From a phage: DNA of 39,720 nucleotides. The first letter of the stretch is position 1. Every line of letters begins with the position of its first letter. Where the stretch lies: sequence record PZ618370.1. One strand, given 5' to 3'. Under the pieces are notes generated by a model. The model made no database searches, had not been told where the DNA came from, and saw only the letters and a program-made list of their open reading frames with translations. Positions 30,054 to 36,503 of this stretch are shown here, piece by piece. The position numbers and the translations under genes were made by a program.

Positions 30054-33000
30054 ATGGCGACTCGTGGTATTCGCAATAACAATCCGGGTAACATCCGGGT
30101 AAGTAAGGACCAATGGGAAGGAATGACTGGGGATGATGGTGCATTCGTCACCTTTGATAGTCCAGAGTCTGGCGTCCGAGCTTTAGGTAAAAACCTGCTG
30201 TCCTACGGTCGCCAAGGTTATGACTCCATCGAGAAGATTATCAACAGATGGGCTCCTCCTAACGAGAACGACACTCAGGCTTATATTGACTCTGTGGTGG
30301 CTGCGACTGGTATTCCAGCTACCCAGAGTCTCGACCTCTCGAACCCGGACACCCTGTCTTCTCTGGCTCAAGCTATCAGCTTCCATGAGACAGGCTCCCG
30401 GTACAATCCTGAAGTATATCAGAAGGGAGTCGCACGAGCACTAAACGGTATCAGCCCAAAGACTCCACCAGTAAGCGCTAACGTATTTGACGCACTCACG
30501 GAAGGACTCAAGGCTAAACCTAAAGTAGCTCTGGGAGGGAACCTTCCGACCGCTGCTGGTCTGAACATTGAGGGTCAAGCACCTGAAGCTCCAAACGAAT
30601 CGTTCGGTGAGATGTTCTATAAGGCTACTGGCGAGACAATGCAGGAACGAGAGGACCGCTCTACGTGGTTCGGTTTCGGTGCTGCTACAGAAGCTGAAGT
30701 GAAGAACTCTATGGTCGGCGTGGCTATCCGCGCTGGTCAGACCGAGGACTCACTTGATGTAATTGGCGATGTGTACAACCCGACCCGCTGGAACAACCAT
30801 AAGTGGACTCGTGATGAGCTGGACCAGATTCGTAACGCTGGGGTTCTGCCTCAGTATTACGGAGTCATTACTGGTGGCTCTCCTCAGAACCTGACCGAGC
30901 TGATTAACTTGGCGCTTGAGAACCAGAAGTTGGATCAAGAGAAGGCCAAGGCCGGGATTGGTGCTCAGTTAGCTGCTGGCGTGATTGGTGCTGGTGTAGA
31001 CCCGCTGACCTACGTTCCTATCGCTGGACAGGTTGGTAAAGGTGGTAAGCTGGTCAACAAGATGTTCACCGTGGCTGCTCAATCTGGAGCGCTGGCTGGT
31101 GTGTCTGAGATGGCTCGTACCTCAGTGGCTGGCGGTGATGCTCATGTGGCTGAAGCTATCCTCGGAGGTGCTCTCTTCGGTGGCGGAATGACCGCTATCG
31201 CTGACGGCTTAGGAAGAGCCTTAGGTCGCAACACTAACGAGTTCGCTGGCCCGGCTACACGTCTGGAAGCTCGTGAGACTGCTCGTAACGTTGATGGTCA
31301 GGACCTGTCTCGTCTCCCTATTCAGGAAGGTGAGCAGACCTTTAGTCATCAAGGCGTTAAGTTCGCTGACGTTCAGAATGAGCCGGGTAGTGTACGACTG
31401 GAGGATGGTTCAATCCTGATTGGTGAGAACCCTCTGAACCCTAAGACACGTCAGGTCTTTGACGAAGTGATTGAGCCTGAACGTGCAGCCGCTGGTGTGA
31501 ACCTTGGTGGGCTGACTGAGATTGGACTGAAGCTGCTTCGGTCCGAGAACCCTGAGATTCGCGGAGTCGCTGCTGACTTAGTGCGTTCACCGACTGGTAT
31601 GCAGTCAGGAGCCTCAGGTAAAATTGGGACCACTGCGTCAGACGTGTTCGAGAGACTTCGTGCTGTGGACCATCGGTTCTACAACGACATCGACGATGCT
31701 GTTACTGAGGCACTCAAGGACCCCTACTTCCAGACAGCATTCTGGCGAGACTCTGCCGCATTCCGTCAGGACATCTACCAGCGTGTGTCTATGGCTATTG
31801 AAGATGGCAGTGGGAACCTGAAGGCTGAACTGACTCCGGGAGAACTGAAAGTCTATGGCCTGCTGAAGAATCAGTTTGACGCAAAGCGTGAGATGATGGA
31901 GAACCCAGCTATGTTTGGTCGTCCAGACGCTAAGTCTATCTTCCCCGGCAGTCGCTTCAAGGGAACCTACGTCCCGCATGTGTATAGCAATCAGATGAAG
32001 GAGCTGTACATCAAGGAGCTTGGAAGCCCAGAGGCACTACAGGAGGCCATCAAGAAGTCATGGTTGACCAGCTATGCGTCTCGACCTGAAGTCAAGAAAC
32101 GTGTGGACGAGGCACTCTTAGAGGCTGACCCTACGTTGACTGCAGATGGACTTGCGGCTGCGGTCGATAAGTACGCTAACGATAAGGCTTACGGTATCTC
32201 TCACACCGAGCAGTTCGAACGTTCATCCGTAATGGAAGAGAACATCAATGGTCTGGTGGGTCTGGAGAACAACAGCTTCCTTGAGGCTCGTAACCTGTTC
32301 GATAGCGACATGTCAATCGTCTTACCTAACGGTCAGACCTTCAGTGTCAACAATCTGCGTGAGTGGGACATGGATAAGATTGTCCCTGCTTATAACCGTC
32401 GAGTTAATGGTGACATTGCTATCATGGCTGGTACAGGAAAGACTACGAAGGACATGAAGGACTTGGTTGAGACCTTGATGAACAAGGCTGGGGATGACGG
32501 TAAGTTGAAAGGTGAAGTATCTACCTTACGTGACACCCTGAAGATTCTAACTGGTCGTGCTCGACGTGATGGCGCTGATGATGCGGCCTTCGCTACCGTG
32601 ATGCGCACGATGACAGACCTATCGTTCTTCGCTAAAAATGCCTACATGGGTGTGCAGAACTTAACGGAGATTGGTGGTATGCTGGCTCGTGGTAACGTTC
32701 GTGCATTGCTACATGGAGTTCCTATGTTCCGTGACCTAGCCTTCCGTAACAAGAAGGTAGGGGCCTCAGAGATTAAGGACCTGCACAATGTTATCTTCGG
32801 TAAGGAACTGGATGACTCAATCCGTCCGTCTAAACAGGATGTCATCGACCGTCTGCGGTCTTACAGTGACCTAGGTCGTGGTGCAGCCACAGCTCTGGGG
32901 ACTGCCAAGTATTACACTGGTGAACTTGCAGTACGCTCGCCGTTCACTAAAGTCCTCAACGGTACGACAAACTACCTGTTAGATGCTGGACGTCAAGGCT

Positions 33001-33941
33001 TCCTGTCTGACATCGTGGAGCATAGTCTGACTGGCAGTAAGCGTCGGTTCGATGACCGCTGGCTGAAGACCGCTGGTATCTCTGACGAGCAGTGGAAGGG
33101 CATTAAGTCCCTAATCCGTGAGTCAGTGACTCGTGGTCCAGACGGGAAGTACACCATCAAGGATAAGAAGGCGTTCAGTCAGGACCCAAGGGCTATGGAC
33201 TTATGGCGTATGGGTGACACCATCGCTGATGAAACGTTACTCCGGCCCCACAAGCTGTCTAACATGGACGCCAAGGCTTATGGTCCTCTCGCTAAGACTG
33301 TCCTTCAGTTTAAGAACTTCGTCATCAAGTCCATAAACGGTAGAACCATGCGTACCTTCTATAACGCCACGAAGAACAACCGAGCGATTGACGCTGCACT
33401 ATCGACCGTGATGTCTATGGGTCTGGCTGGTATCTACTACATGGCTCAGGCGCACGTCAAGGCTTATGCTATGCAGGATGGTCGAGACCGTGACTACCTT
33501 AAGCAAGCTCTGGACCCGACGATGATTGGTTATGCGGCTCTGTCTCGTAGTTCACATCTGGGTGGCCCACTCGGGGTAGCTAACATTCTGGGTGGCATCG
33601 CTGGGTATGAGGACACCAAGATGCTCCGTTCGTCTATCCTACCTCGTTCGCCTACAGAGAAGCCTGAACGTGCCATCTCGTATGGTGCAGCTACAAGTGG
33701 CCCTGTGATGAATGTTGTTGGTAACTTCTTGGAGCAGGTTCCAGCTTTTGGATATGCTGCTAACGTTGGTGCTTCGGCTTACAACTTGGCTGGCTACCTC
33801 AAGGCTGATACTCGGGTAAACGAGAGAGACTACATGACCGGGATGTATAACACCTTCCGTGAACTGGTTCCGAACGACCCGATTACTCAGAAGTTGCTAC
33901 TGGGAACGTTTGAGGAGCAAGGTATCCACATCAAGGACTAA
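30054..33941 (+). CDS. 16: internal virion protein D (gp16) with a non-canonical N-terminal domain
   Basis: 1295 aa; middle and C-terminal regions collinear with T7 gp16 (ETARN, SPTGMQSGASGK, NPAMFG, GTYVPHVY, SRPEVK, DKAYGISH, FFAKNAYMG.QN.TEI, RSP.TK.LNGTTNYLLDA, AMDLWR, LRPHK, NNRAIDAALS); first ~130 aa lack the SLT motifs of T7. Confidence 0.92.
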   Translation: MATRGIRNNNPGNIRVSKDQWEGMTGDDGAFVTFDSPESGVRALGKNLLSYGRQGYDSIEKIINRWAPPNENDTQAYIDSVVAATGIPATQSLDLSNPDTLSSLAQAISFHETGSRYNPEVYQKGVARALNGISPKTPPVSANVFDALTEGLKAKPKVALGGNLPTAAGLNIEGQAPEAPNESFGEMFYKATGETMQEREDRSTWFGFGAATEAEVKNSMVGVAIRAGQTEDSLDVIGDVYNPTRWNNHKWTRDELDQIRNAGVLPQYYGVITGGSPQNLTELINLALENQKLDQEKAKAGIGAQLAAGVIGAGVDPLTYVPIAGQVGKGGKLVNKMFTVAAQSGALAGVSEMARTSVAGGDAHVAEAILGGALFGGGMTAIADGLGRALGRNTNEFAGPATRLEARETARNVDGQDLSRLPIQEGEQTFSHQGVKFADVQNEPGSVRLEDGSILIGENPLNPKTRQVFDEVIEPERAAAGVNLGGLTEIGLKLLRSENPEIRGVAADLVRSPTGMQSGASGKIGTTASDVFERLRAVDHRFYNDIDDAVTEALKDPYFQTAFWRDSAAFRQDIYQRVSMAIEDGSGNLKAELTPGELKVYGLLKNQFDAKREMMENPAMFGRPDAKSIFPGSRFKGTYVPHVYSNQMKELYIKELGSPEALQEAIKKSWLTSYASRPEVKKRVDEALLEADPTLTADGLAAAVDKYANDKAYGISHTEQFERSSVMEENINGLVGLENNSFLEARNLFDSDMSIVLPNGQTFSVNNLREWDMDKIVPAYNRRVNGDIAIMAGTGKTTKDMKDLVETLMNKAGDDGKLKGEVSTLRDTLKILTGRARRDGADDAAFATVMRTMTDLSFFAKNAYMGVQNLTEIGGMLARGNVRALLHGVPMFRDLAFRNKKVGASEIKDLHNVIFGKELDDSIRPSKQDVIDRLRSYSDLGRGAATALGTAKYYTGELAVRSPFTKVLNGTTNYLLDAGRQGFLSDIVEHSLTGSKRRFDDRWLKTAGISDEQWKGIKSLIRESVTRGPDGKYTIKDKKAFSQDPRAMDLWRMGDTIADETLLRPHKLSNMDAKAYGPLAKTVLQFKNFVIKSINGRTMRTFYNATKNNRAIDAALSTVMSMGLAGIYYMAQAHVKAYAMQDGRDRDYLKQALDPTMIGYAALSRSSHLGGPLGVANILGGIAGYEDTKMLRSSILPRSPTEKPERAISYGAATSGPVMNVVGNFLEQVPAFGYAANVGASAYNLAGYLKADTRVNERDYMTGMYNTFRELVPNDPITQKLLLGTFEEQGIHIKD

Positions 33942-33959
33942 ACTATCACTATAGGAAAC
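33937..33959 (+). promoter_or_regulatory. phage RNAP promoter (phi17-like)
   Basis: ACTAAACTATCACTATA-GGAAA; +1 G at 33954. Confidence 0.8.
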
Positions 33960-34004: not shown

Positions 34005-36191
34005 ATGTCCACGATTACACAATTCCCTGCAGGAAACACTCAGTACAGGATTGAGTTCGACTACCTATCCAGAACGTTTGTTGTTGTTACGCTGGTGAAT
34101 AGCTCTAACCCTACCCTGAACCGTGTACTGGAAGTTGGTCGAGATTACCGATTCCTTAATCCAACGATGATTGAGATGTTGGTTGACCAATCAGGTTTCG
34201 ACATCGTTCGTATTCACCGTCAGACTGGAACTGACTTAGTGGTAGACTTCAGAAATGGCTCAGTGTTGACAGCCAGTGACCTGACCAATGCAGAGCTTCA
34301 GGCTATCCATATTGCAGAAGAGGGCAGAGACCAAACGGTTGACTTAGCGAAGGAATATGCTGATGCTGCTGGGACCTCTGCCGGCAACGCTAAGGATAGC
34401 GAGGACGAAGCACGACGAATCGCTGAGGATATCAAGGCATCTGGTCGAATTGGCTATATTACCCGTCGCTCCTTCGAGAAAGGCTTCAACGTTATAACAT
34501 GGAACGAGGTACTGCTATGGGAAGAGGATGGTGAGTATTACCGTTGGGATGGTACGCTTCCAAAGAACGTTCCTGCTGGTACAACTCCTGAAACTTCCGG
34601 TGGGATTGGGGTAGGTGCGTGGGTTCTCGTAGGCGATGCTTCACTTCGTATCGCACTAGCTTCTGAAGTAGGGGCATCAATGGTGTCCCGTAACGGCTCA
34701 CCCCTAGGCAGAATCATTCGTGCATCACTCTTCGAATACCTTACCGAATCAGATCAGCGAGCATTACTTACTACTTCTGGAGCAGTAGTTGCAGCGGATT
34801 ATGCGTTAAAAGCAGCTATAGCTGCTGGAGTTATGGTCCTTGATATACCACGGAACCTAGGGATTATTGAACTTGGTAGAGATCCAGCGACGCTTCCATT
34901 GGGGTTCTCGCTTATAGGATGGGGCTGCCGTCGACCTTATACTGTATCAGATGACAGTAGCTTCCTTAATTGCGGGGTAGTTATCCGCGTAGCAGCTGGG
35001 GCAAGTTTTCCTTTTTATTCAACTGGTCGTCATGTGTTCCGGGATATTGTTTTTGACGGGCGGGATAAAACAACGTATCTTTTTTATTCCACAGATAGGT
35101 ATGCTGAGTTCAACGGTACTCGACTAGAGGGGTGCGGAATTTACCGTTTTGCTATTGGTATTGGTTGGAATAAGGGAGGATCAGCAAGATACATCGCAAC
35201 AGTGAAAGCACACTTTTGTTCCCTATCTGGAAATGGGGACACAGTTAAAAATTTAATAGACTCTATGATGATTGGTTGCACAATCAATGCCAATGACCGA
35301 GGCGTAGCTCTTGTCGGCGGGGCAAATAGTAACTTTTTCGGAGAATGCCGGAACGAATGGAACGCTGGTGATAACTGGTATGCGCATGAATCAATAGAAA
35401 ACCAGATTTCAGGTGAACTGTGCGACAGGGCTGGGCGAGGCGGGGTAGTTGCTGGCAAGGATTCGTCATGGATTGTAACCGGAGTTGTCGTCGCTCGCAG
35501 TGGTGCTAATCAACCAATGAATGATAACTACTCAGCAAACTTTGTTATTATTGATAACGGTAAAATCGTAATCTCTGGGGTGAGAACCAGAAACGGAGCT
35601 AACGAGGGGGGTCAGGGTGGGACAAATTCTCCATCGTTTAACGTATCGGTTCTCGGTTCTGGTAATGGGACACTCCTGGTATCTGGAAGTGATATGACCG
35701 GTTTTGTTACTTCGGTAATTAACCAGAAGGCTCCTACATTAAATAAAGCTATAACCGGAAATCTCGGTATGGATGATGATGTAAATGTTGGAATGTCTCA
35801 GGTTATTAAAGGAAGACGGATTATTGGTTCACAGTCATCGGGTAGATTGCAAGACACTGTGGGAGCAACGTTATCATTCACTAAGCCCAATATTGCGCAA
35901 GATTTATATGCTACATACATCACCAGAGCCATATTGATTGAGTGTAGAATTGGCAATACTGCACAAGGTGATTATATAAAAATACCTATAGGGGTAAGGC
36001 ACGAAAACAATTTCTATCTTGATGTCATTACCAGTGGAATTGTCGCAAGCTCTGAAAGGATTGGTCTTTCAGGAACTGGGGTTACTGTTAGCTTATCTAT
36101 TGATAGTTCAACAGGTGACATCTCAGTTACGTTAACTAGCGTTGATGGGTTGGTGAGAGATGTTAATGTCTCTTTACTGCCATCAATTTAA
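34005..36191 (+). CDS. 17: tail fiber/tail spike protein gp17: T7-like N-terminal adaptor fused to a large beta-helix-like C-terminal domain (possible depolymerase)
   Basis: N-terminal ~150 aa resemble T7 gp17 (F.YL.R.FVVVTL, VDF.NGSVL.A.DL, Q..H.AEE.RD). The remaining ~580 aa are Gly/Asn/Ser/Thr/Val-rich with repeated G-x-G and NxxG segments, unlike the T7 gp17 C-terminus. C-terminal ~1 kb is visibly AT-richer. Confidence 0.9.
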
Positions 36192-36308
36192 GAGTGAGAA
36201 CGAAAGTCGAAACAGAACTGTGGTTGTGGAGGTAGAGGTTGACTACACGCTGACCAACGCATGTAATAACTTTGGGTCACGGACGACCCGCTTTAAACTG
36301 GAGGTTTT

Positions 36309-36503
36309 ATGATTGAGTTAGACTTCAAGAATGAGGTCCTTAAAGCCTCTCCTATCGTCGGGACCGCTGCGGCTGATGGTGCCAGTCGGTTCTTCTTCGG
36401 GCTCACACTTAACGAATGGTTCTACGTTGCAGCTATCGCGTACACCGTTGTCCAGATTGGTGTGCTAGTCTATAAAACGATTAAAGGAGGTGGTAAAACA
36501 TGA
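36309..36503 (+). CDS. 17.5: class II holin (gp17.5)
   Basis: LDF.NE..KA.PIVGT..AD...R.FFGL.LNEWFYVAAIAYTVVQIG match T7 gp17.5 as recalled. Confidence 0.88.
   Translation: MIELDFKNEVLKASPIVGTAAADGASRFFFGLTLNEWFYVAAIAYTVVQIGVLVYKTIKGGGKT

Follow-up and report, generated by a model that had tools for sequence, protein, structure and literature searches.

A Kayfunavirus-type tail spike with an exchanged beta-helix module, probably a capsule depolymerase

In a 39,720-nucleotide stretch of phage DNA (sequence record PZ618370.1; hereafter the window), gene 17 very probably (roughly 85%) encodes the only spike of a Kayfunavirus-type phage, a three-part modular protein with an exchanged, capsule-cutting beta-helix module. 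The gene lies between gp16 (internal virion protein D) and the holin/terminase genes, the same order as in the annotated phages SP7, SEA1f and CLB_P1. Over its full length, its DNA is 97.0% identical to the annotated SP7 tailspike gene and 96.8% to that of SEA1f. SP7 (QLF80618.1) and SEA1f (WPH66108.1) agree with it in genus-level backbone, gene position and 728-aa architecture, and differ by a sequence divergence of about 3%. No second spike-like gene was found downstream of gene 17 or among the large plus-strand ORFs of the window, and the gene 17 product is the sole receptor-binding protein found in this complete Kayfunavirus-type genome. The SEA1f protein is annotated as “tailspike protein with depolymerase domain”. 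[quoted passage not shown]

Architecture of gene 17 and limits of the cassette

The features of the region are as follows:

33941-33959, plus strand: promoter-like site for the phage RNA polymerase, AACTATCACTATAGGAAAC, by resemblance to T7-type promoters
34005-36191, plus strand: tail spike gene (gene 17 equivalent), a single ORF of 728 aa plus stop
34005-34442, plus strand: T7 gp17-type tail-attachment (adaptor) domain and Ala/Asp/Glu-rich linker, aa 1-146, by PF03906 and PDB alignments
34443-34658, plus strand: Tail_spike_N (TSP1/gp66-type) neck domain, aa 147-218, by PF18668 and PDB alignments
34630-34660, plus strand: 5′ recombination junction, codons ~209-219, by sliding identity, BLAST boundaries and alignments
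34659-35813, plus strand: short helical cap, then right-handed parallel beta-helix (putative catalytic domain), aa 219-603
35259-35498, plus strand: conserved polar/charged cluster D419, N428, E451, D474, R498 (candidate active site or substrate groove)
35814-36188, plus strand: C-terminal beta-sandwich domain, aa 604-728, the lowest-GC part of the gene
36192-36221, plus strand: 3′ limit of the exchanged cassette, ~29 nt beyond the stop codon, common to SP5M, SBP and VLCpiS10a

The site AACTATCACTATAGGAAAC overlaps the gp16 stop codon by the final base of that codon, and gene 17 starts 46 nt downstream of it. Its 15-nt core, AACTATCACTATAGG, occurs eight times in the window, always on the plus strand, with 0 copies expected from shuffles, and we infer a promoter role from the likeness to T7-type promoters. 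Scans of the gene 17 region for sigma-70 promoters and terminators gave scores at or below chance. ORFs on the minus strand within gene 17 (up to 105 aa) came without supporting evidence and were taken as mechanical.

Judging from solved homologues, approximately the first 146 residues would dock on the tail and trimerise, plugging the spike trimer into the virion. Pfam PF03906 (Phage_T7_tail) matches aa 10-114 with 58.4 bits (cut-off 25.2), T7 gp17 chains in the PDB (7boz and others) align to aa 6-116, and 9vvr_A, from an entry whose 18 chains represent one spike sequence, aligns to aa 1-226 (E-value 6e-131). The likeness to T7 gp17 comprises the N-terminal ~115 residues matched by PF03906 and the place of the gene after gp16; T7 gp17 then continues as a coiled-coil fibre that has a tip domain and no enzymatic function, whereas a neck domain and a beta-helix follow here. 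For the neck, Pfam PF18668 (Tail_spike_N) matches aa 153-211 with 68.3 bits (cut-off 25), and PDB chains of CBA120 TSP1/3/4 and others align to aa 147-228. Its DNA is ~93-95% identical to more than 100 Kayfunavirus records having other C-termini, as is nt 1 to ~640 of the gene (93-95%). By alignment, the neck is still within the part conserved in Kayfunavirus; a portion of it is also common to SP5M, whose DNA homology already begins at 34539, inside this domain. A sequence-only reading of the window had described the interval 34450-36191, i.e., the last 580 codons of gene 17, as part of a chimera in which only the N-terminal ~150 aa resemble T7 gp17. With respect to T7 likeness this was roughly correct, and the conserved N-terminal and foreign C-terminal parts were recognized, but residue ~150 is not the module boundary: the conserved neck follows, the junction lies at aa ~209-219, and the protein consists of three parts instead of two.

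The K1F endosialidase, the type Kayfunavirus spike, is built on the same principle, in that a module degrading the capsule is joined to a conserved adaptor of the gp17 type. It differs in having a GH58 beta-propeller sialidase and a C-terminal intramolecular chaperone, signatures which were not detected in the gene 17 spike: neither GH58 nor Peptidase_S74 gave a Pfam match at E-values up to 1. The fold matches of the spike are beta-helices, not propellers.

The junctions are sharp. From 34630 to 34660, identity to the Kayfunavirus backbone in 30-nt windows drops from 80-97% to ~40%, and identity to SP5M rises to 83-90%. This 5′ junction coincides with a GDAxLR motif, which is kept in many unrelated spikes and precedes the module on many N-termini. 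Homology to CLB_P1 stops at 34643 and restarts at 36222; homology to the other carriers of the module ends at 36218-36220, and Kayfunavirus homology restarts at 36222. The ~29 nt after the stop codon are what is left of the beginning of a small ORF that follows the spike in SP5M, SBP and VLCpiS10a. SP5M, SBP and VLCpiS10a/S11a retain this ORF, which is seen intact (59-62 aa) in VLCpiS10a and one prophage of E. coli, whereas it is truncated in the window. The cassette, nt ~34650-36221, was exchanged by recombination with the GDAxLR-coding junction and a site ~29 nt beyond the stop codon as its end points.

Fold, relatives and putative target polysaccharide of the module

In a high-confidence AlphaFold2 monomer model (pLDDT 93.7, pTM 0.86), aa 219-728 are shown as a right-handed beta-helix followed by a C-terminal beta-sandwich. 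The input was an alignment of 62 sequences with homologues down to 23% identity; a shallow alignment of aa 147-728 (33 sequences with identities of 69% or more) gave a pLDDT of 49.8 and was discarded. The model contains 44% strand, mostly in strands of 3-6 residues, and a 23-residue repeat, in agreement with the repetitive short strands of a right-handed beta-helix that had been proposed from the sequence. The proposed richness in Gly, Asn, Ser and Thr was confirmed as well, these residues making up 35.5% of aa 219-728 vs. 24.0% in the other large ORFs taken together. The layout of the depolymerase group, with a central right-handed parallel beta-helix and a C-terminal beta domain, is present in the model.

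No family in Pfam or NCBIfam matched aa 219-728, and PHROGs labels the spike only as “tail fiber protein”, so that the enzyme claim rests on the fold and on 33-35% identity to tested enzymes. With the module as query, tblastn detected 101 phage records, 95 of which are Klebsiella phages. Among them, S2-2 of phage K64-1 shows 35% identity (94% coverage, E-value 1e-65) and the FBKp24 protein 33.6% (E-value 1e-56). The latter is the K25-specific KP24gp300, and both are recombinant K25-specific depolymerases (DepoCatalog and its supplement, PMC13385381). The two active enzymes are similar to the gene 17 spike over 94-99% of the module (33-35% identity) and have the same central and C-terminal layout; they differ in being jumbo-myovirus proteins with other N-termini. 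DepoCatalog places them in one class, “classical depolymerase, pouf-like”, together with the structurally similar KLEO13gp10, 184_43 and FKANgp232, which are K22/K37/KL111-specific (PMC13385381). Further, phmmer matched 7xy1, the Kp9 gp42 protein (E-value 2e-37). This type A tailspike of a Przondovirus (PDB 7XY1/7Y1C) is only 25% identical to the gene 17 spike and has a T4 gp10-like branching domain holding a second spike (PMC12295037), a domain that was not detected in the gene 17 spike. Kp9 gp42 is trimeric (PMC12295037), by which the gene 17 spike would be a trimer too. A homologue 98% identical to Kp9 gp42 confers KL111 tropism (PMC12295037), a specificity that need not hold for the gene 17 spike. 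Based on model and sequence comparison, the gene 17 spike is most likely a capsule depolymerase spike. Its beta-helix would bind and cleave a host surface polysaccharide, allowing the virion to bore through to the outer membrane, and the module would therefore be the host-range determinant.

With respect to the target, a K25-like substrate is hinted at by what the nearest typed relatives are called; for the closer relatives SF_KL25 (65%) and K25PH129C1 (46%), this hint comes from the name only. SP7 (Kayfunavirus) and SP5M (N4-like), which both carry the module, were isolated on the same ETEC strain, SP36 (PMC7471389). The isolation host was a porcine ETEC for SP7 and K. pneumoniae for SEA1f, whose spike is the same. 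E. coli WCHEC035148, carrier of a 76%-identical prophage spike, possesses a galF-wzi-wza-wzb-wzc-wcaJ...wzx-gnd-ugd locus, and the type-specific block of this capsule (cps) locus is found in 126 of 5426 E. coli genomes; 67 E. coli genomes are positive for the spike. Among the matches listed, at least 38 of 60 spike-carrying genomes are also among the cps-carrying genomes listed, an association that is confounded by clonality, many genomes carrying ST361-type strain names. The Wzy-like and Wzx proteins of the E. coli locus occur in K. pneumoniae and E. coli, and a cluster look-up of the cps proteins showed them to be common to K. pneumoniae and returned no K-type name. The substrate would most likely be a Klebsiella-type (group 1) capsule occurring in both Klebsiella and E. 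coli. The narrower reading, that the module targets one single capsule of this type with identical Wzy/Wzx in K. pneumoniae and ~2% of E. coli genomes, is tentative, and we consider it slightly less probable than its opposite.

Instead of a capsule depolymerase, the module could be an O-antigen-specific endoglycosidase spike, directed, e.g., against the polymannose O8/O9 antigens of E. coli. By established serology, these are shared with O5/O3 of Klebsiella, and the occurrence of the module in both genera would follow just as well from an O antigen common to them. WCHEC035148 has an O8/O9-family manC-rfbK-wzm-wzt-wbd locus adjoining his, one prophage homologue (P0053) is named as from “E. coli O9,9a:H10”, and the fold matches include the beta-helix O-antigen spikes HK620, Sf6, CBA120 TSP2-4 and Det7. 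Nevertheless, we regard an O-antigen target as unlikely, since all experimentally typed members of the family act on Klebsiella capsules (K25, K22/K37/KL111; PMC13385381, PMC12295037) and the phages with the family are, as described, nearly all Klebsiella phages. Moreover, the same E. coli genomes carry the Klebsiella-type capsule locus, and the capsule would mask the O antigen.

Candidate active site

Within the predicted beta-helix, D419, E451, D474 and R498 are invariant in the 62 homologues, and N428 is kept in 98%. N428, E451 and D474 fall at one and the same position in three consecutive rungs of 23 residues each, and R498 lies on the next rung, offset by one residue. The cluster of D419, E451, D474 and R498 on successive rungs would be a likely catalytic or substrate-binding site.

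This arrangement bears on whether the beta-helix might only bind its receptor, the spike being a non-enzymatic receptor-binding protein. Apart from the missing match to a catalytic family, such a role would agree with the Glu at position 534, where 94% of the family have Asp, and with the inactivity of Kp9 gp42 on K2, the one capsule tested (bioRxiv 10.1101/2024.05.19.594906). However, K2 was the wrong substrate in that test, because the homologue of Kp9 gp42 is KL111-specific. Four invariant charged residues stacked on successive rungs, conserved down to 23% identity, and the activity of the relatives S2-2, KP24gp300, 184_43, FKANgp232 and KLEO13gp10 as recombinant depolymerases argue against mere binding, which we consider very improbable.

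Composition and exchange of the module between phages

The putative depolymerase module differs in composition from the remaining genome. The segment 35000-36190 has a GC content of 42.7%, compared to a window mean of 50.3% and 50-52% in neighbouring genes; just 0.05% of windows of this length reach so low a value, and the lowest one (42.6%) begins at 35001. In the last 500 nt of gene 17, GC falls to 38.6%, and the part coding for aa 219-728 (44.0%) is within the lowest 0.7% of equal-length windows. Codons 214-728 have a GC3 of 0.34 vs. 0.49-0.62 in 2000 length-matched in-frame control segments, and their RSCU distance of 0.65 exceeds the highest control value, 0.44. Nothing unusual is seen in codons 1-213 (GC3 0.46, GC 49%). 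Thus, sliding-window GC and codon usage, the checks proposed along with the sequence-only reading, show that the gene is not uniform and that the anomaly is limited to codons 214-728. The direction of the GC shift noted by eye was right, but its size was overestimated: the values are not 35-40% against 45-50%, as had been counted, and the overall contrast is ~6 points instead of 10. Most of the drop is synonymous, i.e., in third positions. In every carrier examined, the module has 44-47.5% GC, whatever the GC of the carrier genome; low GC in all of these carriers marks a foreign origin here without identifying the donor.

The module is found at the DNA level in unrelated phages. For nt 656-2186 of the gene, identity is 93.6% to SP5M, 88.8% to SBP and 76.6% to VLCpiS10a (75-77%); for the C-terminal 510 aa, the respective values are 93.5%, 88.7% and 76-78% (VLCpiS10a/S11a). 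SP5M is an N4-like Gamaleyavirus (Schitoviridae), SBP a Jedunavirus myovirus and VLCpiS10a an unclassified 60-kb Klebsiella phage. They share with gene 17 the C-terminal 510-aa module and the ~29 nt past the stop codon, and differ from it in wholly other N-terminal virion-attachment domains and virion types. In total, the module was found on at least 12 unrelated N-termini, including those of 694- and 720-aa prophage proteins of E. coli and K. pneumoniae. Among the matches listed, the only Kayfunavirus records with the full-length gene are SP7 and SEA1f (~97%), compared to more than 100 with its N-terminal third.

Sequence comparison therefore supports horizontal exchange of the C-terminal module between taxonomically unrelated phages, as had been proposed for this host-range module; the deviant composition, and the small number of Kayfunavirus records that carry the module, point to its import into this backbone. 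Ancient vertical inheritance as a rapidly evolving gene of Kayfunavirus, with low GC due to chance or amino-acid composition, would be in line with the richness in Asn, Ser, Thr and Ile and with a module GC independent of the carrier, by which composition alone is no proof of transfer, but it is next to untenable given the GC3 far below the control minimum, the full-length gene in just two phage-collection records and the abrupt boundaries including 29 non-coding/foreign nt past the stop, and vertical descent is already refuted by the 89-94% DNA identity to spikes of unrelated families. The exchanged module is a mobile cassette, in circulation between lytic phages (podo-, myo- and unclassified ones) and prophages in Klebsiella and E. 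coli.

A conserved tail-docking front and a swapped depolymerase in one gene is a textbook arrangement, real but ordinary and already known. That depolymerase domains are exchanged as modules on conserved adaptors is well known from the literature (e.g., PMC13385381, PMC12295037), and the findings on gene 17 leave current understanding unchanged. For annotation, gene 17 is better named a tailspike with a capsule-depolymerase module, with the module boundary at aa ~214-219, and precise cassette limits (nt ~34650-36221, GDAxLR junction) are what host-range engineering of Kayfunavirus requires. The link between the prophage homologue and the K locus in E. coli provides a testable prediction of the strains that the phage or the purified enzyme would attack. 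If the module does target one capsule, this phage, SP7, SEA1f, SP5M and SBP would be capsule-type specialists crossing the genus boundary, and their host range would be predictable from the K locus rather than from the species.

The spike gene and its junctions

The window comprises an entire T7-like, Kayfunavirus-type genome, the first 25 kb of which are 91–95% identical to SEA1f, SP7, P762 and many other phages. Gene 17, which encodes the tail spike, encloses the interval 34450–36191 to which the sequence-only reading had assigned a chimeric spike. The following features were considered:

30054–33941: internal virion protein D gene, before the spike gene
33941–33959, + strand: copy of AACTATCACTATAGG nearest the spike gene, just upstream of it
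34005–36191, + strand: spike open reading frame, 728 aa
3500, 7027, 18297, 21118, 22117, 26665, 33941 and 39173, + strand only: the eight copies of the phage-promoter-like AACTATCACTATAGG (0 expected in shuffles)

The gene is followed by holin, small terminase, Rz and large terminase, an order identical in the annotated relatives SP7, SEA1f and CLB_P1. Neither the region 3′ of gene 17 nor the set of large plus-strand ORFs in the window contained a second spike-like gene. The eight copies of AACTATCACTATAGG are presumably promoters of the RNA polymerase of this phage, and late transcription of the spike gene would most likely start from its own phage promoter.

Using Pfam, Phage_T7_tail was matched at aa 10–114 of the spike and Tail_spike_N (PF18668) at aa 153–211; no further Pfam domain and no NCBIfam match was found anywhere in the protein. 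Among PDB sequences, T7 gp17 aligned to aa 6–116, CBA120-type spikes to aa 147–228 and 9vvr_A to aa 1–226 (E 6e-131). Based on these alignments, the earlier statement that about 150 aa resemble T7 gp17 is fair as a description of T7 likeness, but wrong as the join of the chimera. The spike would dock to the tail via its gp17-type domain. In CLB_P1 (L005 3001–5279), two genes stand at this locus, one for a 325-aa gp17 adaptor and another for a 430-aa gp17.1, whereas the window's spike is fused; consequently, members of the genus use the same N-terminal block either within a fused spike or as an adaptor on its own.

In megablast searches, nucleotides 1 to ~640 of the gene showed 93–95% identity to more than 100 Kayfunavirus records with other C-termini. 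Nucleotides 656–2186 matched Escherichia phage SP5M (Schitoviridae, 93.6%), Klebsiella phage SBP (Jedunavirus, 88.8%) and VLCpiS10a (76.6%), and the full-length gene matched only SP7 (97.0%) and SEA1f (96.8%). A 30-nt sliding comparison placed the crossover at 34630–34660, on a GDAxLR motif which sits before the module on many unrelated N-termini. Homology to CLB_P1 ends at 34643 and restarts at 36222, and homology to SP5M, SBP and VLCpiS10a extends to 36218–36220, approximately 29 nt past the stop codon. These sharp boundaries support a chimera, but its join had to be moved to codons ~209–219, and the Tail_spike_N domain is additional to the arrangement proposed earlier.

About 9 nt after the spike, VLCpiS10a (L003 4541–4729) and an E. 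coli prophage (L007 21519–21698) have an annotated ORF of 59–62 aa (MEEETELTEPPFETW...), which weakly matches PHROG 519, of unknown function. The same downstream sequence is conserved in SP5M and SBP, but no gene is annotated there. In the window, only the first ~29 nt of this ORF are left (36192–36221) and its start codon is changed to ACG; thus, the 3′ junction of the cassette cut the downstream ORF. The cassette, from ~34650 to 36221, has been swapped by recombination at the conserved junction.

A conserved hairpin (GGGTC-ACGGAC-GACCC, 36274–36289) lies just 5′ of the holin ribosome-binding site and is also present in SP7 and CLB_P1. SP7 carries an annotated 39-aa "hypothetical protein" between spike and holin (L006 5190–5309), to which a mechanical 50-aa ORF at 36160–36312 is comparable; this stretch of the window is a junction remnant plus the conserved Kayfunavirus leader and is thus probably not a gene.

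Base composition and predicted fold of the module

GC content of the window and of parts of the spike gene:
Whole window: 50.3%
Spike codons 1–215: 49.0%
Spike codons 219–728: 44.0%
Window 35000–36190: 42.7%
Last 500 nt of the spike gene: 38.6%

Measured against all windows of equal length in this genome, the stretch 35000–36190 lies at the lower extreme of GC; a value as low is reached by 0.05% of them. GC3 of codons 214–728 is 0.34 vs. 0.49–0.62 in 2000 length-matched control segments, and their RSCU distance is 0.65 vs. a control maximum of 0.44. GC windows and codon usage therefore agree that composition is not uniform; the low GC claimed for the C-terminal part holds in direction and significance, although the figures given for it (35–40% vs. 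45–50%) were too extreme and the contrast is smaller. The deficit is mainly synonymous. Module GC stays at 44–47.5% across all carriers examined, among them an E. coli prophage of 52% GC and SP5M at 43%; hence, low GC is intrinsic to the cassette and identifies no donor. Together, the DNA identity of 89–94% to SP5M and SBP, the sharp junctions and the deviant GC3 and codon usage support the interpretation of a horizontally exchanged module. The expected richness in Gly, Asn, Ser and Thr was likewise observed (35.5% in the module vs. 24% in other large ORFs).

An exhaustive profile-free search yielded only 184 clusters (50% identity) related to the module at E ≤ 1e-3. AlphaFold2 reached a pLDDT of 49.8 on a shallow alignment and gave a confident model (pLDDT 93.7, pTM 0.86) on an alignment of 62 of these homologs, down to 23% identity. 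In the model, a short helical cap is followed by the beta-helix that the sequence-only reading had anticipated, built of short strands that repeat every 23 residues, and by a C-terminal beta-sandwich. D419, E451, D474 and R498 are invariant in 62/62 homologs. N428, E451 and D474 are predicted to occupy the identical position on three consecutive rungs, with R498 on the next rung, offset by one residue; such stacking of conserved residues is what a groove or active site would be expected to show, and may mark one here. At aa 534 (35604–35606), the window encodes Glu in GANEGGQGG, as do the sequences closest to it, and 94% of the 62 aligned homologs have Asp (consensus GADDDG).

Probable capsule specificity and occurrence in E. 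coli and Klebsiella

Using tblastn, the family was found in 101 phage records, 95 of which are Klebsiella phages. Relatives of the module include K64-1 S2-2 (35% identity) and FBKp24 (33.6%). S2-2 and KP24gp300 are reported to be K25-specific depolymerases in recombinant form, and their structural twins KLEO13gp10, 184_43 and FKANgp232 to be specific for K22/K37/KL111 (DepoCatalog, PMC13385381). All five are classed as "classical depolymerase, pouf-like", for whose conserved motifs an inter-subunit active site has been proposed (PMC13385381). KL111 tropism of engineered phages is set by a 98%-identical homolog of the tailspike Kp9 gp42 (PMC12295037). The names of closer relatives, SF_KL25 (65%) and K25PH129C1 (46%), are only a hint at K25 hosts. 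The beta-helix would depolymerize capsule and so open the way to the cell surface.

SP7 and SP5M, although members of different families, carry the same module and were both isolated on ETEC strain SP36 (PMC7471389); the same spike is present in SEA1f, isolated on K. pneumoniae. Of 5426 complete E. coli genomes, 67–69 contain a prophage whose spike is 76% identical to the module at the protein level; it is also present in many genomes of K. pneumoniae. One spike carrier, E. coli WCHEC035148, has a Klebsiella-type group 1 capsule locus (galF-wzi-wza-wzb-wzc-wcaJ...wzx-gnd-ugd), the type-specific cps block of which is present in 126/5426 E. coli genomes. Among the matches listed, at least 38 of 60 spike-positive genomes were also cps-positive, compared with ~1 expected under independence, a ratio inflated by clonality. 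The Wzy-like and Wzx proteins of this locus occur in both species. A shared capsule would thus most simply explain why phages of both E. coli and Klebsiella use this spike. A minority alternative is that an O antigen common to both is the target; WCHEC035148 also has an O8/O9-type mannan locus.

Inside the WCHEC035148 cps locus, the stretch L009 21825–22949 codes for a "right-handed parallel beta-helix repeat-containing protein" of 374 aa. A partial match to module nt 117–494 (71% DNA identity) lies within another annotated beta-helix protein of E. coli CX08 (H82; NZ_CP073718.1 2457858–2458235), whose genome also has the cps block; this match may represent a prophage spike of the family that is more distantly related. 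A 66%-identical module copy (OR352954.1 104238–105752) is carried by Escherichia phage AV124, a myovirus of 145 kb (Mydovirus). The close relatives of AV124 all infect Klebsiella and its authors report a narrow E. coli host range; AV124 is another case of the module family crossing between the two genera.

The arrangement of an adaptor with an exchanged spike module is textbook knowledge. Near-identical genes have been deposited, and their annotation is that of a tailspike with depolymerase domain; the enzyme class, too, has been catalogued. The only modestly new angle is a testable prediction of a host range set by capsule type and crossing between genera.
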